Source: a virus
IMG/VR virus record: IMGVR_UViG_3300026311_000001
Location: 1-64,000 of that record
DNA length: 64,000 bases
Direction: 5' to 3' (one strand)
Shown here: positions 1 to 60,632 of the stretch, in pieces
Position numbering within the stretch: the stretch's first letter is position 1
Layout of the letters: each line of letters begins with the position of its first letter
Program-made: the position numbers and the translations under genes
Notes under the pieces: model-generated
Seen by the model: the letters and a program-made list of their open reading frames with translations, nothing else
Told to the model about the DNA's origin: nothing
Databases searched by the model: none

Positions 1-112
1 AATCTCCCTGCGAGACTAATCCAAGTCTTTCTTTACACTCGTCAAGTATTTCTATTGTATCTTCAATGGAGAGTTGTTGAATATTATATTTTTGTTTTTC
101 TGTAAGTGCCAT
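1..112 (-). CDS. hypothetical protein, N-terminal part only (runs off window)
   Basis: ATG at 112-110, open to base 1 (MALTEKQKYNIQQLSIEDTIEILDECKERLG...). It follows a cassette junction. Confidence 0.3.
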   Translation of the reverse strand, partial: MALTEKQKYNIQQLSIEDTIEILDECKERLGLVSQGD

Positions 113-176
113 TGTTACTGTATTACATGATTATTTACGTCTGTAAAGTGCGCTTATACATATGTTGTGCGCAATA

Positions 177-437
177 CTAAATTGACTCAAAGTTGTCATT
201 AAAGTATTGTTCAGCAACCAACCATTGGTCATTATGGTTTTTAGGGTTTCTAGCAATCATATCGCCACTTTTAGGAGAACCATTAGCCAAATCTTCAACC
301 GAAATTGATACCTTAACAACTCTTTTTTTATTCATTACGATTAGTTCACCAGCGTGCTTGTTGTAAACTTCAACATCGTAATCTGTAACAGGTCTCATTT
401 CTGCAACTTGCGTTCTTCTGTATTTTTTAAAACTCAT
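177..437 (-). CDS. hypothetical early cassette protein
   Basis: Track ORF 177..458; the likely ATG is at 437 (MSFKKYRRTQ...). The upstream TTG-extended part is the translated GTTA-box repeat. Confidence 0.5.
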   Translation of the reverse strand: MSFKKYRRTQVAEMRPVTDYDVEVYNKHAGELIVMNKKRVVKVSISVEDLANGSPKSGDMIARNPKNHNDQWLVAEQYFNDNFESI

Positions 438-440
438 AAA

Positions 441-579
441 GTACTGCGCACAACACAAAATAAAAAACAGTGGGTGTTGTGCGGCTTTTTAGCCACTGTG
501 CCTTGTAGTTAAGTTTTAGCGGTTGGATAGGTCAAGACTTTCAAATCCCACCGATTTTTTATTCAAACCGTTATAGGGC
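441..579 (-). repeat. cassette junction element (attC-like), minus-strand array
   Basis: Minus strand: GCCCTATAACGG (568-579), then arm GGTTTGAATAAAAAATCGGTGGG, loop, arm CCCACTGTTTTTTATTTTGT, then GTTGTGCGCAGTAC (441-454). Confidence 0.6.
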
Positions 580-581
580 AT

Positions 582-758
582 TTAAGAACGCTCGATAACT
601 TTCCAACTTTCATAACCGAAAGGTAGCGAACCGCCAGCCCTTTGGGTTACTATTCTCTTTGCTTTTGCGATGATGTATTCATCTTCATCATTTTCATCGC
701 AATTAACCTGAACCTCGCCTGAGTAGGTTGCTACCTGATACTTTACTGTTGCTATCAT
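582..758 (-). CDS. hypothetical early cassette protein
   Basis: Track ORF 582..812; likely ATG at 758 (MIATVKYQ...). It is flanked by GTTATAGGGC (778-787) and GCCCTATAAC (568-579). Confidence 0.45.
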   Translation of the reverse strand: MIATVKYQVATYSGEVQVNCDENDEDEYIIAKAKRIVTQRAGGSLPFGYESWKVIERS

Positions 759-777
759 TTTGACTTGAATTAAAAAC

Positions 778-918
778 GCCCTATAACATTGTATAACCGC
801 AAGTGGGGGCATCGTGCCAAATGCAAGTTATTTGCTCCTAATTTAGTTTAGCGTCAAAGTGAATGTTCGGAGCTTTCAATCCCCCACCTGACGGTTATAC
901 TTTGCCGTTATGCACAAG
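778..918 (-). repeat. cassette junction element (attC-like), minus-strand array
   Basis: Minus strand: CTTGTGCATAACGG (905-918), arm AAAGTATAACCGTCAGGTGGGGG, loop, arm CCCCCACTTGCGGTTATACAAT, then GTTATAGGGC (778-787). Confidence 0.65.
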
Positions 919-921
919 TGG

Positions 922-1116
922 CTACATCCGTTCCTTTTTCAACTTTAGTCCTAATTCATCAGGCTCTAAATAAAAAACAGGTGCTCTAAATCCGCAAGCA
1001 CACCAAACACCATAGCAATCTTCATAACCTTCAGGGCCATGTAATTCATGTCCGCTTTCTTTTTCCAAATGCGAGTAAGGGCATTCGTATTTACTATAAT
1101 CTGCTTTGTTTTTCAT
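922..1116 (-). CDS. hypothetical Cys/His-rich small protein
   Basis: Track ORF 922..1155; likely ATG at 1116 (MKNKADYSKYECPYSH...CYGVWCACG). Confidence 0.45.
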   Translation of the reverse strand: MKNKADYSKYECPYSHLEKESGHELHGPEGYEDCYGVWCACGFRAPVFYLEPDELGLKLKKERM

Positions 1117-1140
1117 ATTCTCATTTTTAATCCGCCACCA

Positions 1141-1280
1141 GATGCATAACAGCACCTATAAAAAATAGCGGGGTTGTTGTTAATATTTAAGTTTGTATTT
1201 CAATTTTACTTTGTTTTTAATTCGATAGTCCGTGCTTTATAATCCGCTACTTTTCATAGCTGCATTACGTTAGCCACAAT
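1141..1280 (-). repeat. cassette junction element (attC-like), minus-strand array
   Basis: Minus strand: ATTGTGGCTAACG (1268-1280, with the stop TAA inside the box), arm GCAGCTATGAAAAGTAGCGGATTA, loop, arm CCCCGCTATTTTTTATAGGTGCT, then GTTATGCATC (1141-1150). Confidence 0.65.
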
Positions 1281-1575
1281 TATTGGCTTTTAAAAATCTT
1301 TCTACTGATGTTTTTGATACATATTCATATGGTTCTTGATTGTTGTAATAATCTACGAAAGCCAATAACAGTTCGCTTTGCTGGCTAACAAGCGATATAT
1401 TGTAGTTGCTCTCGCCATGTTCAACACCGTTCGCTAACCGTTCTTTAATAAGATTGATACATACTTCTAATCCAATTTTCACTCCTCTCCAATATGTGTC
1501 ATTTTCAATATCCTCTTTATGTTCAATTGTAATTTGTTCTATCTGTTTCTCTAAATTGTTTAATAATGTTTTCAT
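1270..1575 (-). CDS. hypothetical protein whose ORF spans a cassette junction
   Basis: 101-aa ORF. The right arm plus GTTAGCCAGC box (1380-1389) lie at about codon 63, so the N-terminal third is encoded inside the junction loop. Confidence 0.5.
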   Translation of the reverse strand: MKTLLNNLEKQIEQITIEHKEDIENDTYWRGVKIGLEVCINLIKERLANGVEHGESNYNISLVSQQSELLLAFVDYYNNQEPYEYVSKTSVERFLKANNCG

Positions 1576-1674
1576 AATCGCTCACTATTTAAGTTATTTA
1601 ACATTTCTTTATTTAATCAAAGTCATTAGTTTTACAACCGCAACCACAACATATCGCCAAACGTTAGCAACAAG
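1380..1674 (-). repeat. cassette junction element with long coding loop, minus-strand array
   Basis: Minus strand: CTTGTTGCTAACG (1662-1674), arm TTGGCGATATGTTGTGGTTGC, about 250-nt loop, arm GCAACTACAATATATCGCTT, then GTTAGCCAGC (1380-1389). Confidence 0.55.
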
Positions 1675-1684
1675 GCTGCATTCC

Positions 1685-1864
1685 GTTACATTTCAAAACT
1701 ATCTTTCATTAATTGTTGTATTTCCTCAATACCCTCCATTATTTTTTTAAAAGGCTCATCAAGTTTTTCTGGTGGATAGTGGTAAATATGACCATAGTCT
1801 TGTAATCCTTCTAAAAAATCATACATTTCGCTAACCTCTGTACTTTTAATTTCTTTTATATCCA
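1685..1864 (-). CDS. hypothetical small protein (59 aa, below the track cutoff)
   Basis: Hand translation: MDIKEIKSTEVSEMYDFLEGLQDYGHIYHYPPEKLDEPFKKIMEGIEEIQQLMKDSFEM*. Bracketed by GTTAGCAAC and GTTGCTAAC. Confidence 0.35.
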
Positions 1865-1890
1865 TTTACTTATTGTTTTTAAAACCGCCC

Positions 1891-1999
1891 AGTTGCTAAC
1901 AAGCGGTCATAGTTAATAAAGCCGTGATATTGTTTAGTTCTTCGATTCAGCAGTAATGGCACGGCTTTACTAACCATACCACCAAACGTTATGTACAAG
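1891..1999 (-). repeat. cassette junction element (attC-like), minus-strand array
   Basis: Minus strand: CTTGTACATAACG (1987-1999), arm GGTGGTATGGTTAGTAAAGCCGTG, loop, arm CACGGCTTTATTAACTATGACCGCTT, then GTTAGCAAC (1891-1899). Confidence 0.6.
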
Positions 2000-9307: not shown

Positions 9308-9694
9308 CTACCACCTTGTTACGCCGTTATATAACTCCGAAGTGGTATGTAGGATTACCAGTATCGAATCTGGTCGCTTCAGGACATTTTTAAGAAGCGT
9401 AGATGAATGCAATAACCAAATTTGACGAGTGGATTCTTGTTTAAGCCTACGAACCATTTGAGATATAGACAAACGAGGGATGTAACGAATTAAGAAATGA
9501 ATGTGATCTTTGTCTGTTTCCATAACCTCAATTTCAAAATCAGAACCATCTGCAATAGATTGAAAGATTCGCTTAATATCATCATTTAACTGACCAATTA
9601 ACATTGGCTTACGATACTTACAAACAAAGATTAAATGACATTTGAGGTAATGTTTAGACCGATTTGTTGTGATGTAATTAGATTTTTTGGACAT
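9308..9694 (-). CDS. tnpA: IS200/IS605-family Y1 (HUH) transposase TnpA, C-terminus atypical
   Basis: CHLIFVCKYRKPML...DKDHIHFLIRYIPRLSISQMVRRLKQESTRQIW contains the HUH (HIH) motif and conserved helix. The last ~35 aa do not look like the usual FW..GYF...Y tail, so the protein may be decayed. Confidence 0.65.
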   Translation of the reverse strand: MSKKSNYITTNRSKHYLKCHLIFVCKYRKPMLIGQLNDDIKRIFQSIADGSDFEIEVMETDKDHIHFLIRYIPRLSISQMVRRLKQESTRQIWLLHSSTLLKNVLKRPDSILVILHTTSELYNGVTRW

Positions 9695-10530: not shown

Positions 10531-10764
10531 ACACATTTTATGCAGGCATCGAGGATTGAGGTATTTCCCGGTCGGTTATACATTGAAAGAGAGAAGATAC
10601 CGGAAGGTATAATAAAAAATCCTCTTTACAAGAAAAGGTATGAGAACCGGAGAAGGAACAAAGGTAAGGTACTGAAAGCCCATAAGGACAGTATCTTTAA
10701 AGAAAACGACGATGTATTTTTCAGGGCAAGAAATGGGTTAATCATAGGCGATAATGCCGTAATA

Positions 10765-11052
10765 ATGGAAAAAGATGTAATACTTAAAAATATGGAATTA
10801 ATAGGAGACAGGATATTAGTAGAGCCGATAGAACCAGAAAAGGTAACAGAGGGCGGGTTAATAGTGCCTGATACGGTTGAGTTAAGACCTCAGATGGGTT
10901 ATGCAAGGGCGATAGGTGAAGGAGTAAGGTCGGGTAAGGTAAAAGAAGGAGATAAGCTGTTGTTCTCAAAAGATGCCGGGATAAATTTCGAGCATGAAGG
11001 TAAGAGGATGATCATTGTCCAGTTCGAGAAGGAAGTAATCGCGATACTATAA
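10765..11052 (+). CDS. groES: GroES-like co-chaperonin (Cpn10)
   Basis: MELIGDRILVEPIEPEKVTEGGLIVPDTV..PQMGYARAIGEG.......VKEGDKLLFSKDAGINFEHEGKRMIIVQFEKEVIAIL follows the GroES consensus (LGDRVLV, TAGGIVLPD, VGDKVLFSKYAG). The start is 10765 or 10792. Confidence 0.8.
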   Translation: MEKDVILKNMELIGDRILVEPIEPEKVTEGGLIVPDTVELRPQMGYARAIGEGVRSGKVKEGDKLLFSKDAGINFEHEGKRMIIVQFEKEVIAIL

Positions 11053-13316: not shown

Positions 13317-14051
13317 ATGGTAAGAATTTGCGTAGACTATATTGATCAGATCAAGGACAATCATAATAAGATGAATGCTTTTGCTTTATGGTTGAAGTTG
13401 AAGATTCGTTACCGCAATGGAGTTATCTACGATTACACACCGGAAAAAATATCAAATACCTTTAAAGTTTCAGTATATCATGTAAAAAAGTTAATCCCTA
13501 TTCTTGAAAATATGGGATTAGTGAAAATTTGTAATTACAAAAATGAGGTAAGAATAATAATTGAAAGTTTTAGAAAGATATCTACAGGAAACAATCTCAA
13601 AAAAAATGCAGACATACACATGACGGATAGTCTTGATGTGGTTGTAGCAAAACTGAGGGCTATCCTGTTTTTGTTTACTATTAACCGGCAGCGCAAATTA
13701 GTTGATGTAACAACAAATTTAAAAGAGCTCAAATTAAAGTGGAGAACCTTAAAAAGGTTAACACTGAAATATCAAAAGACCCGTAACGGTCTTGATAATG
13801 TTGATACAAACATCTATTCCGGCTACCGGTTATTAGCAAACGCTTGTGGAATTAGTATAGCAAGTACAAAAAAAATGTTGTTGTATTTTGTCAAGTTCGG
13901 TATTATTAAGCAATTCAAGCGGTACATTATCGAAGCCGATGAAACACACAACGAATTTTTACTTGCTGAGAAATACTCACTCCATAAGGGATATTACTTT
14001 TCAAAGAACAAAACAGTCTACAAGCATTTAGGTACTATATTCGTATTCTAA
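13317..14051 (+). CDS. putative DNA-binding protein (possible small terminase; uncertain)
   Basis: 244-aa ORF directly upstream of the large terminase. Two HTH-like stretches (ISNTFKVSVYHVKKLIPILENMGLV; LLANACGISIASTKKMLLYFVKFGII). The call rests on position only. Confidence 0.3.
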   Translation: MVRICVDYIDQIKDNHNKMNAFALWLKLKIRYRNGVIYDYTPEKISNTFKVSVYHVKKLIPILENMGLVKICNYKNEVRIIIESFRKISTGNNLKKNADIHMTDSLDVVVAKLRAILFLFTINRQRKLVDVTTNLKELKLKWRTLKRLTLKYQKTRNGLDNVDTNIYSGYRLLANACGISIASTKKMLLYFVKFGIIKQFKRYIIEADETHNEFLLAEKYSLHKGYYFSKNKTVYKHLGTIFVF

Positions 14052-22849: not shown

Positions 22850-23974
22850 TTATGAAATCTTACCAAGGTTAAATTCCATTACTTCTTCTGGTTTGCAACA
22901 GGCACCGTAGAGTCCTGTAATAAATCGCAACAAAATATTCAAGGATGCATTCAAATCTGCGTTGTCCTCGTGGCTACATTTAAGACACCTGAATATCTCT
23001 AAGTTTCGATTCATCCTATCAGAATAACCACATTTCGGACAGGTTGTACTTGTATAAAACGGAGCTACAGTGCGAAACTTAACACGGTTAAGTTCACATG
23101 CCATTTCAAGCCGTTTCAACCAATACTTCCAATTCCAAATTCCAATAGAGCGTCTAATATTTTTAGTCAATAGACGTTTGACCTTTGTATTCTTTCCAAG
23201 ATCCTTCAATTTTTCAACTACAATCATATCAGGATCAAGTTTAATTATCTCTTGGACTACTTCATCTATTCTTTGTTTTAAAGCTCTACGAGCCTGTTTC
23301 TGACCGTTTGAGCCATGCTTACATCTCTTTACTCTTTCAATACATGATTTAATGTCAGTACCAAGCTGTGTTCTATTTGAAAGAGATGCTAAAGCATTAA
23401 TACCAGTATCAATACCCAAAACCTTGTTACCTTCTTTTTTAGGTAAAGTTTCAATTTCAAAACTAAACTGAACATATCTATCTGTAATGATATATGAATT
23501 CAATCGTTTACCTTGCAGACTCAACTTATTAAAATGTTTGTGATATCTAATTGGTAAATCCATTATATGTTTACCACCAACAGAAGCAACGTGCAACCAA
23601 GCATCAAATTCAACAGACTCCTTTGAATCTATCAAATCAGCGATAGTACAAGAAACATACATTCTTTTGCCTTTGTGAACAGGCATTACCATCTTATTTG
23701 GTTTATCTTTCCACCTTTCACGAGTAGCTTTGATCATATCAATCGCTTCACGGGCACAAACTTTCCGCAATCTTGCCGATAGCCACGTATCCTTTGGAAG
23801 ATCAACTATATCTTTAAGCAATTCAGATTTGGATGGTAAGTTGCCATTCTCCCAGAAGTGCTTAATAAAGACATTACAAACCTTACCATATTCAGTAAGT
23901 ATAGTTTGTAATTCTTCGATTTTAGATTTAGTAGCAAACTTTAAGCTACATTTAGTTGATCTTATCAGTTTCAT
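22850..23974 (-). CDS. tnpB: TnpB (RuvC-like RNA-guided nuclease family, IS607-associated)
   Basis: LGIDTGIN (RuvC-I D), IVVEKLKDL (E), CPKCGY...FRCLKCSHEDNADLNASLNI (Zn finger plus RuvC-III D). Confidence 0.85.
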   Translation of the reverse strand: MKLIRSTKCSLKFATKSKIEELQTILTEYGKVCNVFIKHFWENGNLPSKSELLKDIVDLPKDTWLSARLRKVCAREAIDMIKATRERWKDKPNKMVMPVHKGKRMYVSCTIADLIDSKESVEFDAWLHVASVGGKHIMDLPIRYHKHFNKLSLQGKRLNSYIITDRYVQFSFEIETLPKKEGNKVLGIDTGINALASLSNRTQLGTDIKSCIERVKRCKHGSNGQKQARRALKQRIDEVVQEIIKLDPDMIVVEKLKDLGKNTKVKRLLTKNIRRSIGIWNWKYWLKRLEMACELNRVKFRTVAPFYTSTTCPKCGYSDRMNRNLEIFRCLKCSHEDNADLNASLNILLRFITGLYGACCKPEEVMEFNLGKIS

Positions 23975-24156
23975 ACATATACAACGTCTTTAAGACCACC
24001 TATATGTTGGTGTTGATTCACATCGGGATTGTTACAATCCAGTACTTTATCCACAACACTGAGAGTTTCCTCTCTGTTTAATTGTGAATTTGTAGAGCAA
24101 AGAACTTGTGAAGCATTCTCTGGTACGTTTTTTAACTCTAATTGTAACTTCTGCAT
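23971..24156 (-). pseudogene. IscB N-terminal leader fragment fused upstream of tnpB
   Basis: MQKLQLELKNVPENASQVLCSTNSQLNREETLSV.. parallels MQKFKKKLKNTPGDTSQVLCSVNSQLNKEETLSV.. of 45536..45877, which continues into a PLMP motif. Here the frame ends at ..VVYV. Confidence 0.4.
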
Positions 24157-24223
24157 AAATTTTAATTTTTAAGCTCCCTAATCAACTCTTACGTTGTGCA
24201 TCACTACACAAGCCCCTTGATCT

Positions 24224-24706
24224 TCAGTCAAGGGGTAATTGACTTTGTTTCTTTTTCCTATTTTCAGCACTTCTTTTGCCATAAACTTTTGATGATGTTG
24301 AAGCAACCAATGACATAATATCTTCAACCAATTCAGCTTCAAAAGACTTTGGTAATGTTTCTTCTAATATAACAACATCTACTCCATGACTACTGAAAAA
24401 CCTTTGATAAACTGCAAAGTTAAACCTTGTCAATCTATCTTTATGTTCAACAATAACTTTATTAATCTTGTGTTTTTCTGCAATATCTAATAGTTTATGT
24501 AATTTAACTCTTGTATCTGACATTCCAGAACCAACTTCTTCAAAGATGAAATCAACTTGATATTTCTTTTTAACGCAATATTCAAGCAGTCTACCTTTCT
24601 GTCTATCTAAATCACCTTTTTGTTTCTGTTCATGGGAAGATACTCTACAATAAACCCTTATTTCTTGTTTGCGCCGGTAACTTTTGCGGCCATGTTCAAT
24701 ACAAAA
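24224..24706 (-). pseudogene. tnpA: IS607-type serine recombinase TnpA lacking the N-terminal HTH domain
   Basis: Hand translation upstream of the track ORF gives ..RVYCRVSSHEQKQKGDLDRQKGRLLEYC..GSGMSDTRVKLHKLL..DRLTRF. The catalytic-Ser motif is present, but there is no ATG and no MerR-like domain before it (in-frame TGA at about 24707). Confidence 0.65.
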
Positions 24707-29426: not shown

Positions 29427-31952
29427 TTAATTTGCTTCAATTGCCTCAACCCAGTTATCTTTAATTATCTGATCTCCAGTATCATTGGGGTGTACCCCAT
29501 CCCCTGAATCAAAAGCCTCATCTAAATACTCATCTTCATCCAAATCAAGCCCCGTGGTGTTCGCGGTCATCACATAATCAATTCCTGTGATTGTACTGCT
29601 TATTGCGGCATTTAAAGCCAACCATTTCGTATGATTTACCTCACCCTCTGCTGTGGGCGTCAATGTCGCTGCAATAATTATAGCTTCCGGCGCATCGGTA
29701 TTTAGTTGATCAACCAAAATTTGATAATGGCCAGGACCGTCTGCTTCGGCACCAAGATCGTTAAGACCTATTTGTAAGCATATATATTCAAACGATTGTT
29801 GGGCCGAATCACTTAGTGCGTCCCACGCTGTTTTTTGTTGAAGAATTGTGTGGCCTGAAACCGCAATATTTGTTATCACATAAGGTTCGTCGTCGGCAAT
29901 AAACAAATCATCAATAGGGGCCATAGTGCTATTCCCGAGTAACAATACTTCCGATTGATCAATTTCAACCGTGAACCTTACACCAATATATCCACCATCG
30001 TAATCAGCCGAATACCTTACAAAAAGATACCTCCCTGAGCTTGTATATGGACCCAGGCTTGATATATCACCAATGGGACCCTCTTTCAGTTCAAGAAAAT
30101 TATTATCAGTTTGGTTCCCATCAAGTATATGGATTCTATCACCGTTGCCTATTCCGCCAGCGGTAAAGTCTACCGTTGCAGTATTCCCCTCACCGGCATC
30201 TATCAGCCATGTTTCATCAAATCCATCAAGGACAAAACCATAGTCACTGCTTTGATAAGTATTTTCTTCTGTGATCAAGTGATCGTATTTTAAATTTTTA
30301 TTCTGAATTGGTTGCGGAGTTTTTAAAAATGGATTTGCGTGCAATGCTTGCGTTCCCCAGGTCGGATCATCTTCCAGTGTGAATAGCTTGAAATTATCAA
30401 GTATAACATAGCATCCATCGTCTGAAGGAGCATAATATTCTCCAGTACCGCCATGAAAGCTACATATAATCACTCCGTCAATACCCCATGCCGGATCATC
30501 AACCTCCATATATTTTATCTCATCATCTTCAAGTACTTTATGCCCATCTGCCCATACCTCATGTATGCCATCTGTGTTTGCATCCCCACCTGTAAAAGTA
30601 TTGATGGCCACCCTTTGAACTACCTCGTATTCATTGCCATAAACCATGAAAATAGTATCCAGCCAATCCGTATTAGCCCATCCGCACCATATTTTATCGT
30701 GTGAATATTCATAAGTATACCATTCCCCAGCCTGTTCAAAGTTAACTTTAGCTATAAAGCCATCACTGCCCTCCGGGCATTCTCCCGGTGAAAATCCTTT
30801 TGGCTTTGCCGAAAACCCCGGCATTTTACCGCCACCGGAACTGTTATAGTTCCATGAATATTTTATATGAAAGCTGAGATAGTACTCTCGCGCATCAGGG
30901 ACCACCACTGATACCTCAAAGCCTCCGATAGTAGCCCCCGGCGGGCTATAAACTTTCAATGCTTTGGAAATCTCACCGTCGATAGTGTCGAGAACTATTG
31001 AAGATACCGGTACGCCTAAATATACATTGACGTTGTTATAGTTAGTTTCGGGCCAATATTTAACAGAACTATCATAACTAAACACGCCAAGGTTCATTCG
31101 GCTGAAATCTTCTTCCCATATTATATTATCTTCTGGTTCAGGAACGACTTTTTGTGGTTTACCTTTTTTCCTGAATAGATTTTTCTGGACATACGATGAA
31201 CCGACCTTCCTGTATCTGTCTTTCAGCACATTGTTTCGATATGTGTTTTTTTCTATGCGTGTTTCTACCACGAACGGATAAGAAATACCATTATATAAAC
31301 TACTGGCCTCATCTGTCGTCAGTACACGACTCCACATACCAACTTCGTCAATTAATCCATTGAAATCTCTTAATGTCGATGAACTAGTATATGTCCCTAT
31401 TATATTTGAGCTGCTCCCATTGGTAACATTTGCTGTTAGTGTAAACGTTCCCGCAGGTGATCCGTTTATATAATATGTTCCAGTGTTTGCTGTTGTATTA
31501 AATGTGACTAATATATAATGCCAGTTATTAACAGATATAGTACTTGTACTTTGATCTGCCTCTGACACGTTCACGATAACAAATTGTATCGCCCCATTAT
31601 TTCTTACAACCAAAGATGCTGCACCTGTTTCACCCCCCACAACGGCAATAAATGAACTCTCATAACTAATGACTTTCACCCATGCACCTATAGATAGGTT
31701 TCCAGTTAATTGTATCCGGGCATTATCCGGGAGTGTAATGAATTGTGAACTACCATTAAATGAGTACGCATTCCCTATATGTCCTGACACTCCCTGTGTA
31801 GCCCCTGTTACTGTTCCGTTGTTATATCCTGTTGCGTCAATAGCATTCCCCGAAGACTCATCCAACTTCCAATACCCGTTTATATCAGTCAGTAAGCTAG
31901 ACTGAGAATACGCATTAACACAAACCAATAAGCATATAATTATTTTTCGCAT
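29427..31952 (-). CDS. large fibre/spike-like protein: signal peptide, LamG/concanavalin-like N-terminal region, C-terminal SGNH/GDSL esterase domain
   Basis: N-terminus MRKIIICLLVCVNAYSQ. ..WKLDESSGNAIDATG..GTV.GA...G.IGNAYSF.G is LamG-like. C-terminal blocks LLLGNSTM (I), GLNDL (III) and DGVHPND (V) are SGNH-like. Confidence 0.6.
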   Translation of the reverse strand: MRKIIICLLVCVNAYSQSSLLTDINGYWKLDESSGNAIDATGYNNGTVTGATQGVSGHIGNAYSFNGSSQFITLPDNARIQLTGNLSIGAWVKVISYESSFIAVVGGETGAASLVVRNNGAIQFVIVNVSEADQSTSTISVNNWHYILVTFNTTANTGTYYINGSPAGTFTLTANVTNGSSSNIIGTYTSSSTLRDFNGLIDEVGMWSRVLTTDEASSLYNGISYPFVVETRIEKNTYRNNVLKDRYRKVGSSYVQKNLFRKKGKPQKVVPEPEDNIIWEEDFSRMNLGVFSYDSSVKYWPETNYNNVNVYLGVPVSSIVLDTIDGEISKALKVYSPPGATIGGFEVSVVVPDAREYYLSFHIKYSWNYNSSGGGKMPGFSAKPKGFSPGECPEGSDGFIAKVNFEQAGEWYTYEYSHDKIWCGWANTDWLDTIFMVYGNEYEVVQRVAINTFTGGDANTDGIHEVWADGHKVLEDDEIKYMEVDDPAWGIDGVIICSFHGGTGEYYAPSDDGCYVILDNFKLFTLEDDPTWGTQALHANPFLKTPQPIQNKNLKYDHLITEENTYQSSDYGFVLDGFDETWLIDAGEGNTATVDFTAGGIGNGDRIHILDGNQTDNNFLELKEGPIGDISSLGPYTSSGRYLFVRYSADYDGGYIGVRFTVEIDQSEVLLLGNSTMAPIDDLFIADDEPYVITNIAVSGHTILQQKTAWDALSDSAQQSFEYICLQIGLNDLGAEADGPGHYQILVDQLNTDAPEAIIIAATLTPTAEGEVNHTKWLALNAAISSTITGIDYVMTANTTGLDLDEDEYLDEAFDSGDGVHPNDTGDQIIKDNWVEAIEAN

Positions 31953-33734: not shown

Positions 33735-34406
33735 TCAAACGGTTTTTGCGGCGATCTTACACCTTTGGCAGTAGTAATATTTTTTACCTAATATTTTGTA
33801 AATATCATTCTCCAACTCAGGTGCGAACTTATTAAATTCATCGGTGAATATTACCTTATCCCCTTTTTTTACATCTATCCCTTCATCGGCATTTTCTAAC
33901 GTACTCTTGGTATAATAATAATTTGGATAAGATGTGTATTCTATAACGCCGTAACGGTAATCAATGACTTTTAAAGATGGTGCAGCTAAGTTTAGTTTTG
34001 TTTTGTATGTTTGGTATACCGGGGTAAAAAGCAGATATCCATTAACAGGGATGATCTTTTCTTTTCTTAATGCCGCAATGATATGATAATAAAGTATCAT
34101 CCGATATTCTTTCCCGTCTGCCGTTTTTATTACTTTTGCGAATAACGAATCATGATATTGTACGAATATTTTATCTCCTTTTTTTAAGTCTATCTTTGTT
34201 TTCCAGTATCCTCTTACTTCAGTTAGTTCTTCAGGAAGTTCAGCTACTTCAAATACACGTTCTACATTTTGCGTTAAATACTGGTCTCTATGATAAGATT
34301 CCGCTACCCTCTGAAGCCCTCCTTTAGTTTTTTCCTGAAAGTTATTTTTGATCCTTAAACATAACACATAATTGTTCTGAGGTTTCAATCCTTTTATCGT
34401 ATCCAT
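33735..34406 (-). CDS. hypothetical protein
   Basis: Track ORF 33735..34442; likely ATG at 34406 (MDTIKGLKPQ...). Confidence 0.5.
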   Translation of the reverse strand: MDTIKGLKPQNNYVLCLRIKNNFQEKTKGGLQRVAESYHRDQYLTQNVERVFEVAELPEELTEVRGYWKTKIDLKKGDKIFVQYHDSLFAKVIKTADGKEYRMILYYHIIAALRKEKIIPVNGYLLFTPVYQTYKTKLNLAAPSLKVIDYRYGVIEYTSYPNYYYTKSTLENADEGIDVKKGDKVIFTDEFNKFAPELENDIYKILGKKYYYCQRCKIAAKTV

Positions 34407-34752
34407 CCTTATTACCTCGTGGATTTCTCTTTGGGTTTGCATAATTGTATCTCCCTCTGTATTTATATTTTTTTATTACTTTCTCATCAAGATAAAGCCT
34501 TCTTCTTAATACTATTGCATCTATCGCTTCTAAGGTTTCTTCGCACTCTTTTTTTAGGGCGATCTTTTCATTGGTTTGTTTTAAGAATTCTATCCTGATT
34601 ATTTTTTCTTCAGTCTTAGTCTTGACTGTCTCGATGGTATTATTCACAAAGTTTGTTATCAGGTCGTCAAATTCACTTTCGTCCGCGAAATTTCTTGTGG
34701 ATATGATAGCCAGTAATTCGCTAACCGTATTTCCTACTTCGATGATATACAA
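34342..34752 (-). CDS. hypothetical protein
   Basis: Track ORF of 136 aa. Confidence 0.45.
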   Translation of the reverse strand: MYIIEVGNTVSELLAIISTRNFADESEFDDLITNFVNNTIETVKTKTEEKIIRIEFLKQTNEKIALKKECEETLEAIDAIVLRRRLYLDEKVIKKYKYRGRYNYANPKRNPRGNKDGYDKRIETSEQLCVMFKDQK

Positions 34753-35373: not shown

Positions 35374-35931
35374 ATGGGTAAAATATTAGGGGTCGATGAG
35401 AACGGTGTATACGTTATCGACAAATCACAGCCGGTAAAACTCGATTTAGGTAGTGGATTAAATCAGATGCCTCATGAAGACGGGTGGATTCACCAGGATG
35501 TATCTTCAGCAAATGGAATAGAGATTGTATGTGAGTGGAAAAAAATACCATTAGAATCGGGAATAGTTGATATATGCAGAATGGGAGACATAATAGAGCA
35601 TATATTCCCGGATGATAAGGATACCATATTGAAAGAATGGAATAGGATTTTAAAAATAGGGGCAAAAGTACATCTTACAACTCCAAACTTTGACTATTCA
35701 TGCAGGGAATACACTCTTGGAAGAATGACGTTACATGAAGCACAACAAAATCTTTACGGCGACAGGATGAACCAATGGTCAATTCATTGGGGAACATATA
35801 CATTATCAACACTAAGAGAAACTTTAGAAAAATACGGATTTGGAGAAATAGACTTTAGTGAATCTCCGGGAGAAAAAAATTGTCCGTGGTGGATTGTTGC
35901 CAACTTTATTAAGATTAATAATGTTCACTAA
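35374..35931 (+). CDS. class I SAM-dependent methyltransferase
   Basis: VKLDLGSGLN (motif I), DICRMGDIIEHI, LKEWNRILKIGAKVHLTTPN (post-II/III). Confidence 0.7.
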   Translation: MGKILGVDENGVYVIDKSQPVKLDLGSGLNQMPHEDGWIHQDVSSANGIEIVCEWKKIPLESGIVDICRMGDIIEHIFPDDKDTILKEWNRILKIGAKVHLTTPNFDYSCREYTLGRMTLHEAQQNLYGDRMNQWSIHWGTYTLSTLRETLEKYGFGEIDFSESPGEKNCPWWIVANFIKINNVH

Positions 35932-35940
35932 TATCTAAGA

Positions 35941-36597
35941 ATGTCTAAAACAATAGCACTTATCATTAATTGGAATAGGCTTGAATATCCTAAAAACATG
36001 GCCGACTGGCTGGCTGAAAACGGGACTGTTGAACCAATAATAGTAGACAATGGCAGCACTTATCCACCGCTTTTAGAATATTACAAAAAATGTCCTCACA
36101 AAGTAGAGATGCTTAACGCCAATTGGGGGCCTGCCGGAATATTTTTATGTGGTGTCCTTGAAAAGTACGGAGTATCAGAAAATTTCATAATAACTGATTC
36201 TGATCTCGATTTAACCGGAGTACCAAGTGATTTTTTACACATCCTACGACTAGGATTAGACAGGTATAGTTTTGCTCATAAATCAGGATTCTCTTTAAAA
36301 ATAGATGATTTACCTGAAAACGAACTAAAAGAATATGTCCTTCAATGGGAGCGACCGGCGTGGGGCAATAAATTAGATAGTCAATTTTATTCAGCATATA
36401 TTGACACTACTTTTTGTCTTTGCAGAAAGATTTATAATGATTTCCCATCGGTAAGATCGGCTCCGCCGTATCAGGTTCGACATTTACCGTGGTATTTAAC
36501 CAAAGAAAACATCCCTCATGACGAAAAATACTACCTTGAACATACATCGTCATGTAGTGCATATGCAGAAAGATTAAAACTAATGTTAGGAATATGA
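35941..36597 (+). CDS. glycosyltransferase family 2-like
   Basis: ALIINWNRLEYPKNMADWL....EPIIVDNGSTY is the typical GT2 N-terminus. Confidence 0.55.
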   Translation: MSKTIALIINWNRLEYPKNMADWLAENGTVEPIIVDNGSTYPPLLEYYKKCPHKVEMLNANWGPAGIFLCGVLEKYGVSENFIITDSDLDLTGVPSDFLHILRLGLDRYSFAHKSGFSLKIDDLPENELKEYVLQWERPAWGNKLDSQFYSAYIDTTFCLCRKIYNDFPSVRSAPPYQVRHLPWYLTKENIPHDEKYYLEHTSSCSAYAERLKLMLGI

Positions 36598-47069: not shown

Positions 47070-48353
47070 GTAAACTACCCACCCACGCAAAGCGATGGGA
47101 TGGGCTTTAAACCTGACAACGAATGCAAAGAGCAATACATAGTCGATTTTTCAGCAGAATTTACGGTCTGCCCAAGCAAAGAGATAACTTTAGAAGCGTT
47201 ATAATCAGCGTCTATGGTATCTACATTGCAGTTTGTGTTTGTGCATTTAAACACTTTGTTTGTTCGTTTGCCAATATGTTTACATTCACAGCAAGTCTGC
47301 GAACTGTAAGCAGGATTGACCACAACAAGTTTAATCCCATTGAGCAAAGCCTTATATTCAAGTTTTACTCTCAAATCTGCAAAGTTCCATTTATTAAGTT
47401 TTGTCCTAAACTTTTTGTTTCTCCGTTTAGAAGTAAACCTGATATTGGTAAGGTCTTCAATGGAAATACCTTTACCCTGTTCTTTTGCAGATGCTACAAT
47501 AGATTTACTTATTGTGTGGTTAATCAAATTAGCCGTTGTTCTTTCCTTGCCACTAAGCCGTTTAGACAACTTCCTGCAATTCCTTTTAGTGGAACGCTTA
47601 GAAGTGTCTGCCTTTGCCTGAATAGAACTACGAACTTTTTGCCGATGTTCACGATAAGTATTAAGCCACTCGGCAGAATGGTTAATACCATCAGAAGTTG
47701 CTATAATCGTTGTCAAACCAAAATCACAACCGATAAATTCCTCAATGTCTTTAACATCTTCTTCGGGAACGTCAACGGTCTGAAACAGGTAAAACTTGCC
47801 TTTCTTATAAACCAAATCCGCTTCACCTTTAATGTAAGGCAGGTAGTTTCTATTATGGCAAACAAAGGGAACTTTAATCCTGCCACCGATAGCCCAAAGG
47901 GAAACAATATCGTTGGATTTGTAAGTCATAATCCTGCTATCATAACCAATGCTTCCAAGCGGTCTAAATTGTCTTTTGGTTTTCTTATCCAATTTGTAGC
48001 TATCAGCAACTTTTGCAATACATCTTACAAGAATTTGACTACTAAGTTTAAAAGTAGCCTTGTATTTATGATAAACCTCGTGATGCAATTTAAAATTATT
48101 GAAAATACGCTTCTCACAAGCCACATCAGAAATGGCATTGCAAACAGCATTAGCTTCCTTCATCGTGTCGAGAAGCAAGTTAGCCTGTTCATCGGCAGGC
48201 AAAAGCTTTATTTTCAATGTCAACTTCATGGCACAAAGATACGAAATAATTTCACATATAAGAAAAATAATTACTAATTTTGTTAAACAATTTAATTATG
48301 GAGCGACAATTCCTTCCATCGGCAGCAAAGCTGACCAATGGGTTTCCTTGCCG
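47070..48353 (-). mobile_element. IS605-family tnpB-only element (second subfamily)
   Basis: Left-end palindrome at 48300-48353, TATCTTTG box at 48234-48241, tnpB, and a right end at 47070-47110 (..GCCCATCCCATCGCTTTGCGTGGGTGGGTAGTTTAC). Confidence 0.6.
47075..48229 (-). CDS. tnpB: TnpB (RuvC-like RNA-guided nuclease family)
   Basis: IGCDFGLT (D), ISIEDLTNI (E), CCECKH....FKCTNTNCNVDTIDADYNASKVI (Zn finger plus D). Confidence 0.85.
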   Translation of the reverse strand: MKLTLKIKLLPADEQANLLLDTMKEANAVCNAISDVACEKRIFNNFKLHHEVYHKYKATFKLSSQILVRCIAKVADSYKLDKKTKRQFRPLGSIGYDSRIMTYKSNDIVSLWAIGGRIKVPFVCHNRNYLPYIKGEADLVYKKGKFYLFQTVDVPEEDVKDIEEFIGCDFGLTTIIATSDGINHSAEWLNTYREHRQKVRSSIQAKADTSKRSTKRNCRKLSKRLSGKERTTANLINHTISKSIVASAKEQGKGISIEDLTNIRFTSKRRNKKFRTKLNKWNFADLRVKLEYKALLNGIKLVVVNPAYSSQTCCECKHIGKRTNKVFKCTNTNCNVDTIDADYNASKVISLLGQTVNSAEKSTMYCSLHSLSGLKPIPSLCVGG

Positions 48354-50442: not shown

Positions 50443-51636
50443 TTATGCTCCATTTTGTGAACTACCCACCCACGCTAAAGCGATGGGATGGGCTTCATGG
50501 GTCAAAGCTCCTTCTAACGAAGGCAACGTACCATGATTTTTAAGTGTATGTTCCGTACACAATTTATTTAATGCGAAATTTTTAATATTAACGGAAGCGT
50601 TAAGATCACGATTAAAAACAGAACCACATTCAGGACAAACCCATTCACGGTCTTTGAGTGTAAGTTCTTTGTTAATGTATCCGCACGCTGAACATGTTTT
50701 AGAGCTTGGTTCAAATCTCCCAATCCTTAGAATGTTTACACCGTTCCATTTTGCTTTATATTCAAGCATAGCAACAAACATTCCCCATGATACGTCAGAA
50801 ATTGAACCTGCTAAACAGTGGTTCTTTAACATTCCAGAAATATTTAAGTCTTCCAAAGCAATAGATTGGTTCTCTCTTATTAACTCTGTACTGACCTTGT
50901 GCAAAAAGTCTTTTCTTTGGTTGGCTACTTTCTCATGTAGAATAGCTAACCGATGTTTACGCTTATTTGATTTGTGTCTTGAAAATTGTCGTTGCTGGTA
51001 TTTTAAGCGATCTATTGATTTACGTAAGTACTTTGGATTGTCGTATTCTTTGCCATTTGAGGCAACAAGAAAAGATTTAATTCCTAAATCCACCCCTACT
51101 GTTGTTTCTTCATTAACTGGTTTTGATTGTTTTTCTACCTCGCCAGTTTCGCAAAGAATAGATACAAAATATTTACCTGTTGGCGTTCTACTTATCGTAG
51201 CTTGTTTTATTTCTCCCTTTATCTGCCTATGTAATACAATATCAACACCCTTTTTAAACTTAGGAATAATAAGTTTGTCGTTATCAATTTTTATACTTTG
51301 TGGAATATTGAAAGACTGTTTTCCTCTACCCTTTTTCTTAAATTTAGGGAAATCAGTACGCCCCTTAAAGAAGTTTTCAAAAGCAGTGTTCATATTAACA
51401 ATAGATTGTTGCAAAGACTGGCTATTAACTTCTTTTAACCATTCATTTTCTTTTTTTAAATCAGGGAGTCGTTTAACAAGGCTATACCAAGAATGGTTGG
51501 TTTTGTCTTTAGCGTATTCTGATTGTTTAAAAGCCAAAGCATTGTTATACACAAAGCGAGCGCAACCAATATGTTTATTGATTAACTCAGCTTGTGGTGC
51601 TGTAGGATTCAAACGATATTTAAACGCTTTTAACAT
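50443..51636 (-). CDS. tnpB: TnpB (IS605 OrfB-type), paralogue of 44322..45500
   Basis: Long identical runs with the other copy (ATISRTPTGKYFVSILCETGEVEKQS; HKVSTELIRENQSIALEDLNI). D/E/D and the Zn finger are intact. Confidence 0.9.
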   Translation of the reverse strand: MLKAFKYRLNPTAPQAELINKHIGCARFVYNNALAFKQSEYAKDKTNHSWYSLVKRLPDLKKENEWLKEVNSQSLQQSIVNMNTAFENFFKGRTDFPKFKKKGRGKQSFNIPQSIKIDNDKLIIPKFKKGVDIVLHRQIKGEIKQATISRTPTGKYFVSILCETGEVEKQSKPVNEETTVGVDLGIKSFLVASNGKEYDNPKYLRKSIDRLKYQQRQFSRHKSNKRKHRLAILHEKVANQRKDFLHKVSTELIRENQSIALEDLNISGMLKNHCLAGSISDVSWGMFVAMLEYKAKWNGVNILRIGRFEPSSKTCSACGYINKELTLKDREWVCPECGSVFNRDLNASVNIKNFALNKLCTEHTLKNHGTLPSLEGALTHEAHPIALAWVGSSQNGA

Positions 51637-51734
51637 ATTGCAAATATACAATTTTTATATTAATTGTTATCTTTGTATAAGATTATTAACCATGCCTTAC
51701 ATCCAACCGACTGAAGATCGGTTGGTTTTACGGC
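50457..51734 (-). mobile_element. IS605-family tnpB-only element, paralogue of 44317-45622
   Basis: Right end at 50457-50496 (..GGGTGGGTAGTTCAC). Left-end hairpin at 51694-51734 (minus strand: GCCGTAAAACCAACCGATCTTCAGTCGGTTGGATGTAAGGC). Confidence 0.65.
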
Positions 51735-55946: not shown

Positions 55947-56110
55947 ACTCAATAGCTTTTTTTATGGCATATACACGTTGTTATGTGCTGTAAACCGTGA
56001 GCGTATGGCAAGCCCAACATGTGCGGTGGGAATGGATTTGAAGCATTGCATATACGGCTGGTATATGCTGTGCGGCCTCCGGCAGGGGTTGGGCTTATTG
56101 AGGAGGTTTA

Positions 56111-56249
56111 TTGCACATAACGTTGAGTGTAACCGCATGTAGCGGATTAGAAAGTAATAACCTATCAAATTATACGAATATGAATAAAGAGCAGAACACT
56201 TCGCAAACCACAGAACCCGCTATTGCGGTTGACACTGTGTTAGGCAACG
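56111..56249 (+). repeat. cassette junction element J1
   Basis: TTGCACATAAC (pairs with GTTATGTGC at 55980), arms AGTGTAACCGCATGTAGCGG / CCGCTATTGCGGTTGACACT, ATG 56180 in the loop, then GTTAGGCAACG. Confidence 0.65.
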
Positions 56250-56437
56250 TACTTTATTTACCTGAATTGGTAATGAGTTGGAAATCTTTAAATGTAGATA
56301 ATTTTGGTGTTAAACTACCAATTACAACATATCCAGGGATGGGTAAATATTGGATACCTGTATTTGAAAGCATTGAAGAATGCAAAAAAGAATATCCTGA
56401 CAGTAAGGTGATAATTATAAAACAAGGGCAATGGTAG
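56180..56437 (+). CDS. hypothetical cassette protein
   Basis: ATG in the J1 loop (MNKEQNTSQTTEPAIAVDTVLGNV...), in frame through the GTTA-box. Confidence 0.5.
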   Translation: MNKEQNTSQTTEPAIAVDTVLGNVLYLPELVMSWKSLNVDNFGVKLPITTYPGMGKYWIPVFESIEECKKEYPDSKVIIIKQGQW

Positions 56438-56440
56438 TAT

Positions 56441-56499
56441 GTTGCCTAACGGTTAGTATAAACGGTCGTTTTAATGCCGTTTATACATTGTTGTGTGTC
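56441..56499 (+). repeat. cassette junction element J2 (minimal, 59 bp)
   Basis: GTTGCCTAAC-GGTTAGTATAAACGGTC-gttttaat-GCCGTTTATACATT-GTTGTGTGTC. Confidence 0.7.
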
Positions 56500-56604
56500 T
56501 GTGGGCGGTGATTTAGTACTAAACTTTATTTGAAATACTGAACAAAAAAGAAAAAAGGGAGGGGGAAAACTTTATAGAGTACCCATTTATATAAATCTGA
56601 TACA

Positions 56605-56913
56605 ATGAAAGTATTAACAGAAGGTCACAAGTACCAATTAAGCGGTTTTGAGAACGCTGAAAACACTCAAGAAATCCAATTCATTGAGAAAACGCCAATT
56701 GAAGGCACAACCGAATTGAAAACGGTAAATGATGGAACAACTAACGAGGAACTTCTTGAAGTCTTAATTGACCGAATGAACTACTTACAAGGAAAATTCC
56801 CTTGCCGTGAAAATGCAATTGTAATTACTAAACTTCAAGAATCTTTGATGTGGTTAGAAAAAAGAACGTCTGACCGTAAAAAGAGAAATGTAGAAGGTAA
56901 ACAATTGGCTTAA
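56605..56913 (+). CDS. hypothetical cassette protein
   Basis: Track ORF of 102 aa. Confidence 0.55.
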   Translation: MKVLTEGHKYQLSGFENAENTQEIQFIEKTPIEGTTELKTVNDGTTNEELLEVLIDRMNYLQGKFPCRENAIVITKLQESLMWLEKRTSDRKKRNVEGKQLA

Positions 56914-56986
56914 ATTTTTGTGAGCGTGGGCTTTTTCTTTTTTGATTATTAGCAGAAATGTTGATTTGAAAAACGGATTTAGCCCA

Positions 56987-57291
56987 TTGCACACAACAAG
57001 GCTGGCGGTATGGGTATGTTTGCCCAACGCACCGCACCGGACTTGAATTGAAATACTTAACTTAAAAATACGAGCGATGGCATATTATTCATTGAATACA
57101 CAAATAAACAAAGGGAAATACAAAGGGAAAAAAGTAGAGGAACTTATTAAAAGTACCGAAGGGCAAAAATATCTTCTTGCCTTACATATTGGAAACTATA
57201 ATGTGTTTTTAAACCCAGAAGTATTCAGAGCGTTGGCAGATTACACTCGAACAAAGAACGGCAAATTACCTATACCGCATGTTAGCGATAC
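56987..57291 (+). repeat. cassette junction element J3 (long coding loop)
   Basis: TTGCACACAAC, arm GCGGTATGGGTA ... arm TACCTATACCGC, then GTTAGCGATAC. The loop contains the first ~68 codons of ORF 57077. Confidence 0.55.
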
Positions 57292-57388
57292 GGTTTGCGA
57301 TAATCCGCATTGCGTAGACGGTGTAGTAGCTGAAATATATGGCGAAAAAGTTTACTGCGATAAATGTCAATCGCAAACTGGACGCTAA
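57077..57388 (+). CDS. hypothetical Cys-rich protein spanning a junction
   Basis: 103 aa. ..GKLPIPHVSDTVCDNPHCVDG...CDKCQ. The stop TAA lies inside the TAAC-box GACGCTAAC. Confidence 0.5.
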   Translation: MAYYSLNTQINKGKYKGKKVEELIKSTEGQKYLLALHIGNYNVFLNPEVFRALADYTRTKNGKLPIPHVSDTVCDNPHCVDGVVAEIYGEKVYCDKCQSQTGR

Positions 57389-57510
57389 CGTTTGACGGTA
57401 TCAGCAGTATTTGCTTCACTAAATTTAATTTTAAACACAAATGACAAAATTAGCAGAAAATAATCCACAAGGCACGGCAAATATTGCTGATGACTGTGTG
57501 TTAGCCACCG
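57381..57510 (+). repeat. cassette junction element J4
   Basis: GACGCTAAC, arms ATCAGCAGTATTTGC / GCAAATATTGCTGAT, ATG 57441 in the loop, then GTTAGCCACCG. Confidence 0.65.
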
Positions 57511-57767
57511 TACTTTTATGTGATTGCGGGTCGGCGGAGCATCAAATAATAATACATAAAGACAAAGATTTTTCAGAAGGATATAGAGAAGTGATACTTT
57601 GTCCACACTTAATCACATACCGTAATATTTTCAAACGGGTATTGGTTGCTTTTAAATACATATTTGGTTATAAATGCAAATATGGTGCGTGGGATAGTAT
57701 CATAGTTTCGAAACAAAATTATCTACCATTAAAAGAAGCTGTGGAGTTTCTTGAGTATGGTGGCTAA
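57441..57767 (+). CDS. hypothetical cassette protein
   Basis: 108 aa. Stop inside GGTGGCTAAC. Confidence 0.5.
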   Translation: MTKLAENNPQGTANIADDCVLATVLLCDCGSAEHQIIIHKDKDFSEGYREVILCPHLITYRNIFKRVLVAFKYIFGYKCKYGAWDSIIVSKQNYLPLKEAVEFLEYGG

Positions 57768-57894
57768 CGGACGAGCGTATGAGTAGTGGCGGATAGAATG
57801 CAACTACCTTTCGTAAAGCACAAAGATTGAAAAGAGAACTAAACTTAAATATTAACACAAAAACCGCCATTACTTATACGCATTGTTAGCGGTA
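57759..57894 (+). repeat. cassette junction element J5
   Basis: GGTGGCTAAC, arms GCGTATGAGTAGTGGCGG / CCGCCATTACTTATACGC, then GTTAGCGGTA. Confidence 0.7.
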
Positions 57895-57921
57895 TGTATG
57901 GGCGGATTAGAAGTACAAAAG

Positions 57922-58476: not shown

Positions 58477-58569
58477 CGGCTTGTGGTATGAAATCGAAAC
58501 CGACACCACCACAGCCTGAACAATGCGACTAAGCAACCAGAGGTTTTGTTTTATACCACTTGTTAGCCA
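58468..58569 (+). repeat. cassette junction element J6
   Basis: TACCGCTAAC (pairs with GTTAGCGGTA at 57885), arms GTGGTATGAAATCGAAACC / GGTTTTGTTTTATACCAC, then GTTAGCCA. Confidence 0.7.
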
Positions 58570-58611
58570 TCTGGTGCGGTCAATTAGTAATAAACTTAAT
58601 TTGAAAACGAA

Positions 58612-59112: not shown

Positions 59113-59124
59113 GGATTAAAAAAA

Positions 59125-59457: not shown

Positions 59458-59461
59458 GGTT

Positions 59462-60629: not shown

Positions 60630-60632
60630 CAC

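Follow-up and report, generated by a model that had tools for sequence, protein, structure and literature searches.

Integrons carry arrays of single-gene cassettes separated by imperfect palindromes, the attC sites, and a cassette consists of an open reading frame (ORF) followed at its 3' side by its site. The attC architecture comprises R'' (RYYYAAC), L'', a variable loop, L' and R' (GTTRRRY), in which only the AAC and GTT triplets are invariant; the site is recombined as its bottom strand at G/TT by the integron integrase IntI (a slash marks a breakpoint or unit boundary throughout). An exchange between a folded hairpin and a double-stranded site, carried out by Xer recombinases, is established for CTX-phi. 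In the pdif modules of Acinetobacter plasmids, inverted Xer-type sites bound gene modules whose cargo is re-assorted between replicons; these sites are double-stranded, 28 bp long and of alternating orientation, with no hairpin of ~100 nt between them. In T4-type phages, stem-loops with expression signals (promoter/stem-loop cassettes, PeSLs) mediate a documented shuffling of genes, which is thought to proceed by homologous recombination between direct repeats (PMC2839356, PMC4122927), and clusters of attC sites lacking an integrase have been described in 17 phages (Qi et al. 2023, PMC9892861). Here, these systems are compared with two arrays of small genes and hairpins at the ends of a 64,000-nt stretch of viral DNA (IMG/VR record IMGVR_UViG_3300026311_000001, positions 1 to 64,000; hereafter the window). 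Judged by sequence comparison, the arrays are likely to be gene cassettes of a site-specific recombination system that works like an integron, carried by a phage of Bacteroidota.

All coordinates refer to the window, and L-numbers denote loci or contigs fetched for comparison. The sequence-only reading had proposed that the minus-strand genes at the left end form a second array of the same element family as the plus-strand array at the right end, in the opposite orientation, and this was borne out. The two arrays have no cassette in common, so that the former is not a duplication of the latter. Each array runs in the direction of local transcription and away from the centre of the window, and the GC skew switches sign accordingly.

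Recombinational exchange had been preferred to local duplication, and the comparison with other phages supports this, since whole units recur with 100% identity and exact boundaries in unrelated phage contexts. Nucleotides 570-164 (minus strand) are 100% identical in L123; the identity starts at ATAAC/GG, covers hairpin M5 and its GTT box, ORF and closing box, and stops at CACAAC/, the sequences on either side being unrelated. Nucleotides 61825-62288 are 100% identical in L326, in L329 and in the co-contextual loci L328, L330 and L334, and 98.6-99.8% identical in L327/L333, L332 and L335, the upstream boxes and the downstream sequence differing with each context; the 123-aa product of this unit is recorded in 178 blocks of the collection. 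Cassette 3 of the minus array is ~90% identical in L008 and L052, with homology extending from the TAAC of the preceding box to just past its own AAC. Nucleotides 60917-61258 are 100% identical in L327 and L333, where they directly abut the 61825 unit; the window therefore has exactly one extra cassette (61256-61828), a case of cassette gain or loss between genomes. In an all-against-all BLAST comparison, 64 ends of high-identity segments were no more than 8 nt away from the AAC at the 5' side of a hairpin, against four at the 3' GTT. The mobile unit, as delimited by these alignments, is a hairpin that begins directly behind AAC, a GTT box, an ORF and a box ending in AAC, and the hairpin belongs to the downstream gene. 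As the unit is bounded at AAC, ORFs that start inside hairpins stay intact.

Each junction is an attC-like hairpin made up of RYYYAAC, an asymmetric spacer, a stem of 17-20 bp and GTTRRRY, and 20 junction hairpins fold as R''-spacer-stem-loop-stem-R'. This is the architecture of attC, with AACG...GTT as the invariant columns. The imperfect palindromes measure 39-283 nt from AAC to the next GTT, the main classes having ~80 and ~117 nt between the triplets, while the junction hairpins as a whole are 57-303 nt long and all of one orientation. Hairpins were oriented by the AACG/TGTT signature, with agreement in 244 of 249 cases; folding energy alone mis-oriented a few. An alignment of 55 non-redundant hairpins from many contigs revealed compensatory changes in 18 of 22 pairs. 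Its consensus has an R helix in which TAACG pairs with TGTTA and includes a near-invariant G.T pair, an asymmetric internal loop (4-6 nt vs 1 nt) and a stem whose 17 predicted pairs all covary (17/17). In attC, extrahelical bases in the L box mark the recombined bottom strand; the consensus found here shows the asymmetric spacer and, as a difference from integron sites, conserved G.T mismatches in the stem, and no bulged base was predicted in its fold.

A covariance model (R1) built on this alignment recognised 16 hairpins in the window, all within the two arrays and on the coding strand, with 34-114 bits, scores that are partly due to construction because several window hairpins are in the training set. 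The best match on the opposite strand reached 20 bits, and nothing above E=0.2 was found in the 54 kb between the arrays. In the minus array, the model returned 445-579, 778-916, 1141-1278 (hairpin M3, 110 bits) and 1891-1997, all on the minus strand; it failed to match the short hairpin P2, hairpin P6 and the long-loop hairpins P3 and M2. The two strands are not equivalent: in 19 of 20 hairpins the more stable fold is that of the coding strand (-11.8 vs -8.6 kcal/mol, DNA parameters), because each stem contains 1-5 G.T pairs. In about half of the hairpins the loop contains the start of the downstream ORF, which then continues across the 3' arm and the GTT box. The long-loop variants M2 and P3 have 62 and 68 codons in the loop, that of M2 encoding the start codon and the first 62 residues of ORF 1270-1575. 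The motif GTTAGCCA (1382-1389) had been taken as a gene-boundary box but actually lies inside this ORF, because its junction hairpin M2 is such a variant. The loops of the ~117-nt class (e.g., 62310-62345; columns 45-115 of alignment A2) have a near-invariant T within a CTTTCAAAT/CTATCAAAT-like motif, and several imperfect GCAC(A/T)AA...TT sub-repeats upstream of the start codon; motif and sub-repeats could be expression signals or sites for accessory proteins.

The ends of each cassette are complementary to one another. This cross-gene rule, by which the box opening a gene pairs with the box closing it, had been read from four cassettes of the minus array, and it holds in both arrays: over 20 cassettes, the perfect complementarity of a cassette's own boxes averages 8.75 nt, compared with 3.98 nt for non-own boxes and 4.0 nt for the two boxes of one hairpin, and none of 20,000 permutations reached the observed value (p<5e-5). 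With the boxes as cores, the two ends of a cassette pair imperfectly over 13-19 bp, and the duplex energies range from -10.5 to -18.8 kcal/mol. The rule extends to 116 other loci: of 304 pairs of consecutive hairpins, 48% show complementarity of at least 7 nt, compared with 2.6% when hairpins are paired at random. Such a rule is known to mark cassettes that can circularise and whose site-specific crossover falls within the conserved AAC/GTT core. All boxes cited in the sequence-only reading are present, two of them displaced by one nucleotide (GTTAGCAAC at 1892-1900, not 1891-1899; TGGCTAAC at 1269-1276, not 1270-1277). The 5' arm of hairpin M1, GTACATAAC (1989-1997), is the upstream boundary of the minus array; it has no partner of at least 8 nt within 3 kb and no GTT-box partner upstream.

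Boxes are also re-used. The 14-mers GTTGTGCGCAGTAC and GTATTGCGCACAAC each occur exactly twice in the 64 kb, at 441-454/59444-59457 and 164-177/59662-59675, respectively, and CTTGTGCATAACGG occurs solely at 905-918 and 63425-63438; a check of these 14-mers for copies away from junctions found none in the 64 kb. The closing box of cassette 3 reads TGCATAAC in the minus-strand reading of the chain. The proteins of the two cassettes with a common box pair (177-437 and 59462-59662) had seemed dissimilar, and indeed gave no BLASTP alignment at E<=100. Their upstream hairpins (445-579 and 59318-59453) are ~70% alike, which points to a common hairpin-plus-box chassis with replaced cargo, a pattern that both exchange and convergence would fit. 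A survey of all loci gave 149 cassettes with matched boxes, among which there are 98 distinct boxes (10-nt boxes). Cargo was unrelated in 58 of the 69 same-box pairs, and boxes differed in 87 of the 98 related-cargo pairs; box identity was nevertheless 11% in related-cargo pairs vs 0.5% otherwise, a ~20-fold enrichment. Much of the box re-use is due to the limited repertoire (98 distinct boxes in 149 cassettes). The proposal that boxes move independently of cargo thus stands over long timescales, through re-assortment or a limited repertoire (the 58 and 87 pairs), but not over short ones, where box, cargo and upstream hairpin travel as one unit.

Clustering of the ORFs from the fetched loci revealed a recurrent tyrosine recombinase of ~270 aa; one member is encoded on IMGVR_UViG_3300025030_000041 (L246 10001-10813). 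Among the NCBIfam models, the enzyme matches NF040815 ("site-specific tyrosine recombinase/integron integrase") best, with 168-208 bits in three of the four proteins scanned, below the cut-off of 220, and 238 bits in the fourth, from a bacterial locus. The integron-integrase model TIGR02249 (cut-off 265) gave 153-220 bits with the match split into two stretches, and the closest solved relatives are archaeal XerA (4a8e, 5hxy), followed by IntI4 (2a3v), the latter again in two stretches. By these matches the enzyme belongs to the Xer/IntI clade and appears to be devoid of the IntI-specific insertion. Eighty viral loci were then fetched by the recombinase protein, with up to 10 kb downstream included where the contig allowed. 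All 229 R1 matches in these loci (E<=0.001) precede the recombinase gene on its own strand, with none on its downstream side, a strict association of such arrays with the enzyme. In most of 39 loci examined, a conserved site, ..YTAAC/TAYYATATATA.., directly follows the last closing box, usually 30-60 nt before the recombinase start codon, and a motif like it often terminates arrays that have no recombinase. The terminus of the minus array resembles this terminal site, which is conserved, presumably double-stranded and attI-like, and adjoins the recombinase gene in related arrays. On the opposite strand, the order in the recombinase loci is the classical one of integrons (integrase, attI, cassettes), except that all cargo genes are inverted. 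Unlike in integrons, the recombinase gene is downstream of the cargo and co-directional with it. The features of the two arrays are listed in Table 1.

Table 1. Features of the minus- and plus-strand cassette arrays of the window (a slash marks the unit boundary).
Feature	Position (nt)	Strand	Description
Minus array	164-1997	-	Five cassettes, each with 5' hairpin, one ORF and 3' box ending in AAC
Hairpin M1	1891-1997	-	34.2 bits, E=1.4e-5 (covariance model) and predicted fold
Cassette 1	1663-1988	-	M1, box GTTAGCAAC (1892-1900), ORF 1686-1865 (59 aa), box GTTGCTAAC (1663-1671)
Cassette 2	1269-1662	-	Long-loop hairpin M2 (1381-1671), box GTTAGCCA (1382-1389), ORF 1270-1575, closing box TGGCTAAC (1269-1276)
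Cassette 3	907-1268	-	M3 (1141-1278), box GTTATGCA (1143-1150), ORF 922-1116, closing box CTTGTGCATAAC (907-918)
Cassette 4	570-906	-	M4 (778-916), box GTTATAGGGC (778-787), ORF 582-758 (or 582-812), closing box GCCCTATAAC (570-579)
Cassette 5	164-569	-	M5 (445-579), box GTTGTGCGCAGTAC (441-454), ORF 177-437 (86 aa), closing box GTATTGCGCACAAC (164-177)
Minus array terminus	148-177	-	GTATTGCGCACAAC/ATATGTATAAGCGCAC (CACAAC/ATATGTATAAGCGCAC), no hairpin past AAC
Plus array	55966-64000	+	Same family, at least 15 cassettes, runs off contig end
First plus unit	55980-56121	+	Matched boxes GTTATGTGC...GCACATAAC, no ORF, truncated hairpin
Plus cassette with box pair of cassette 5	59318-59675	+	P8 (59318-59453), ORF 59462-59662, boxes 59444-59457 and 59662-59675
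Reference example of mobile unit	61829-62288	+	P13, ORF 61904-62275, closing box; 100% identical in at least 5 other phage contexts
Terminal site (not of the window, for comparison)			..TAAC/TATTATATATAC..

The cargo of the plus array includes MT-A70, N6_N4 and C5 DNA methyltransferases and an Acb2/Tad1-like protein, the product of cassette ORF 56605-56913 (+), which matches the Pfam family Acb2_Tad1_hairpin. This is the fold of phage sponges for cyclic-nucleotide defence signals. Pfam searches returned no match for six unannotated cargo proteins of the plus array and no family match for any of the five proteins of the minus array; from the plus-array cargo, we infer that the arrays may have an anti-defence role. 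The first plus unit lies right behind a C5 methyltransferase gene and is preceded only by what appears to be a 3' hairpin arm (CATATACACGTT); it may represent a truncated array boundary. The idea that the plus array opens with a reversed terminal site was rejected, as CATATACACGTT before 55980 fits the 3' arm of a truncated hairpin. On the related 83-kb contig L122, a 43-aa ORF and then NinG follow beyond the minus array. This NinG/Rap-type junction endonuclease gene lies at L122 10492-11175, just past the array, and another is found at L117 36311-36973, near the methyltransferase cassettes of Polaribacter phage P12002L.

In the proposed mechanism, the coding strand of a single-stranded or excised unit would fold into an attC-like site, with an R helix formed from the unit's own two boxes, an asymmetric spacer and an L helix of 17-20 bp with conserved G.T pairs. 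A XerA/IntI-like tyrosine recombinase would cut the coding strand at or beside AA/C. Strand exchange with another hairpin would excise or reshuffle cassettes, and exchange with the double-stranded terminal site at the downstream end of the array would insert them; replication would then resolve the single-strand exchange, as in integrons and CTX-phi. The hairpin includes the gene start and, presumably, the signals for expression as well, so that the cassettes would be self-expressing. We infer that catalysis proceeds in this way, which strand is cut, that the substrate is single-stranded and that such a recombinase serves this phage.

Several observations weigh against this proposal. Scans of 104 ORFs with Pfam and PHROGs revealed no tyrosine recombinase gene in the window, and the search was equally negative for up to 10 kb around these cassettes in nine further phage contexts and for the DNA past the minus array in L122. 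The plus array reaches the end of the contig, so a recombinase may follow there; otherwise the enzyme for this phage must act in trans, or else the arrays must be relics. No long high-identity stretch is common to the window cassettes and the 80 recombinase-bearing loci, and the link to the recombinase consequently rests on membership in the hairpin family. Some hairpins are conserved while both flanking boxes differ (P10 vs L068, P5 vs L059), and therefore GTT-side exchange or hairpin replacement also occurs, as a minority pattern. Finally, the conserved G.T pairs and the co-orientation with transcription fit a role at the RNA level equally well.

Among other explanations, the arrays might be ordinary clusters of attC sites lacking integron integrases (CALINs), with classical attC sites recombined on the bottom strand by a bacterial IntI and cassettes of the usual ORF-plus-site order. 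In a loose sense they do form such clusters, of 5 and at least 15 sites and with no integrase in the window, and the likeness extends to the RYYYAAC...GTTRRRY palindromes between single-gene cassettes, to the complementary cassette ends with crossover in the conserved core, and to the presumed double-stranded site and Xer/IntI-clade tyrosine recombinase at one end of complete arrays. There is also a phage precedent with methyltransferase cargo, P12002L, in which the loop of site P12002L_attC1 (30011-30053 of that genome) is identical to that of window hairpin 56450-56490. This very site, however, was predicted by HattCI only, not by the Infernal step, and was the one of six phage sites that IntI1 failed to recombine (PMC9892861), which fits a distinct site family with its own enzyme; R1 does not match phage P12002L because its site is of the short-loop type. 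Moreover, the hairpin travels with the gene downstream of it, not upstream, and often holds its start codon, so that a G/TT cut would split ORFs; the AAC boundaries agree with the classical rule only in a reading of the array from the opposite strand, which inverts every ORF. An integrase with an IntI-specific domain is absent from the window, the recombinase of the related arrays falls below the integron-integrase cut-off with its IntI-specific segment unmatched, and the carriers are phages of Bacteroidota. A plain CALIN is hence quite unlikely. It is also unlikely, if slightly less so, that the cassettes are run by XerC/D-type recombinases of the host, as in CTX-phi, with no dedicated phage enzyme. 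In favour of this reading, a recombinase is missing from the vicinity of the cassettes in most of the phage contexts, the phage enzyme that accompanies such arrays is of the Xer type, and boxes such as TTGCGCACAA and TTGTGCATAA resemble the XerC arm (GGTGCGCATAA) of dif from Escherichia coli, the dif sequence used for the comparison. Like CTX-phi, the arrays would involve a Xer-type recombinase that joins a folded single-stranded hairpin and a double-stranded site by single-strand exchange, and tandem arrays accumulate at the target; the units, though, are single-gene cassettes of 0.3-1 kb in phage genomes and not whole phages at chromosomal dif. Complete arrays encode their own recombinase, and in the 39 loci with the upstream region examined the array ends against that gene, which indicates a cognate enzyme. 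The pdif modules share discrete gene modules bounded by Xer-type sites and re-assorted cargo, and differ in the sites, as the phage junctions are hairpins of one orientation.

Regulatory cassettes of the PeSL type, shuffled by homologous recombination between repeated promoter/stem-loop motifs, are very unlikely. As with PeSLs, repeated stem-loops flank small, variable, early-type genes in a plastic region of the phage, mark the boundaries of gene gain and loss and carry start codons, but the breakpoints fall precisely at AAC, even where the hairpins involved have unrelated sequences, the two ends of a unit are complementary in inverted orientation and not direct repeats, and a site-specific tyrosine recombinase is strictly associated with the arrays. 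Elements acting purely at the RNA level, as processing sites, terminators or translational control hairpins of a polycistronic early transcript, would account for the conserved G.T (G.U) pairs, the strict co-orientation with transcription and the start codons in loops; they would leave unexplained the complementary ends across genes, the letter-perfect units in unrelated genomes and the association with a recombinase and terminal site. As the whole explanation this is extremely unlikely, although an RNA-level role may well exist as an additional function. The least probable alternative is single-strand transposition of hairpin-ended units by a Y1 TnpA of the IS200/IS605 type. Elements of this family likewise rely on hairpins and integrate on the 3' side of a short target, and the window contains four TnpB-like genes and an IS200-like TnpA remnant, yet that ORF (9308-9694, minus strand) has an HUH motif, looks truncated before the catalytic tyrosine when inspected by eye and lies far outside the arrays. 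The TnpB copies are absent from the array junctions, and the recurrent neighbour of the arrays is a tyrosine recombinase, with no Y1 transposase among the recurrent families. Integron-like recombination by a Xer/IntI-clade enzyme thus remains the preferred reading.

The window represents almost the entire length of a 64,095-nt metagenomic contig (ENA ERZ27268617, k141_137771) with a G+C content of ~35%, and was assigned to a phage by the terminase, portal and endolysin families among its genes. Megablast searches with both window ends gave DNA matches to isolated phages in methyltransferase genes only, mostly of Flavobacterium phages, and a single hairpin used as query returned no match among isolated phages. 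A specific hairpin pattern derived from the window was found in more than 120 genome contigs, almost all from Bacteroidota, with ~4 chance matches estimated, and a looser pattern in more than 116 viral contigs. A scan of the window against Rfam gave no family covering the junction hairpins. A strong palindrome of ~145 nt with AAC/GTT bounds lies at 13685-13829, inside ORF 13317-14051; an ad hoc detector picks both of its strands (-12.8 and -16.0 kcal/mol) and the covariance model gives no match.

Other features of the window lie between the arrays. Two full-length Rfam matches to HEARO RNA (RF02033) are found on the minus strand at 24012-24243 and 45720-45970 (117 and 104 bits), and a TnpB/Cas12f-like ORF lies just downstream of each (22850-23974 and 44322-45515, respectively); the remaining two of the four TnpB/Cas12f-like ORFs are at 47075-48229 and 50443-51651. 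A serine recombinase of the resolvase type is represented by a fragment (24224-24523, minus strand) that was located by eye beside a TnpB-like gene and suggests a decayed element of the IS607 type. This fragment and the IS200 TnpA were judged unrelated to the arrays. A match to the type-P3 twister ribozyme (RF03154; 5550-5620, minus strand; 48 bits vs a gathering score of 39.9) is situated amid small early-type genes. The phage also carries a sugar-nucleotide/glycosylation gene cluster (~35374-43672; exact coordinates for two of its genes only) with GDP-mannose dehydratase and epimerase family proteins, family-2 glycosyltransferases, a DegT-type aminotransferase and a hexapeptide acyltransferase, and two proteins have a C-terminal GroES-like Cpn10 domain (10540-11049, plus strand; 33738-34442, minus strand).

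In the full-text literature on phage integrons and similar elements, searched mostly without subscription journals so that a prior description is possible, the arrays were not found described as a system beyond Qi et al. 2023. Taken more broadly, the balance is slightly in favour of the view that phages of Bacteroidota own an integron analogue, with a XerA-like recombinase devoid of the IntI domain, a folded site at the 5' side that doubles as translation start, and letter-perfect circulating cassettes of methyltransferases, an Acb2/Tad1-like sponge and small proteins, which would amount to a bank of anti-defence genes mirroring the defence-gene banks of chromosomal integrons. If this is true, cassette capture by folded-hairpin recombination extends beyond bacterial integrons, and phages hold a parallel and mechanistically related system with another recombinase clade, an inverted cassette polarity and sites that serve both recombination and translation. 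It would offer a natural experiment on the choice of strand and substrate by Xer/IntI-clade recombinases that have no IntI-specific domain, and the hairpin model and terminal site would allow a sequence-based search for thousands of small phage genes on which host defences probably exert selection. For the phages themselves, it would provide a concrete mechanism for the fast turnover of early and anti-defence genes.

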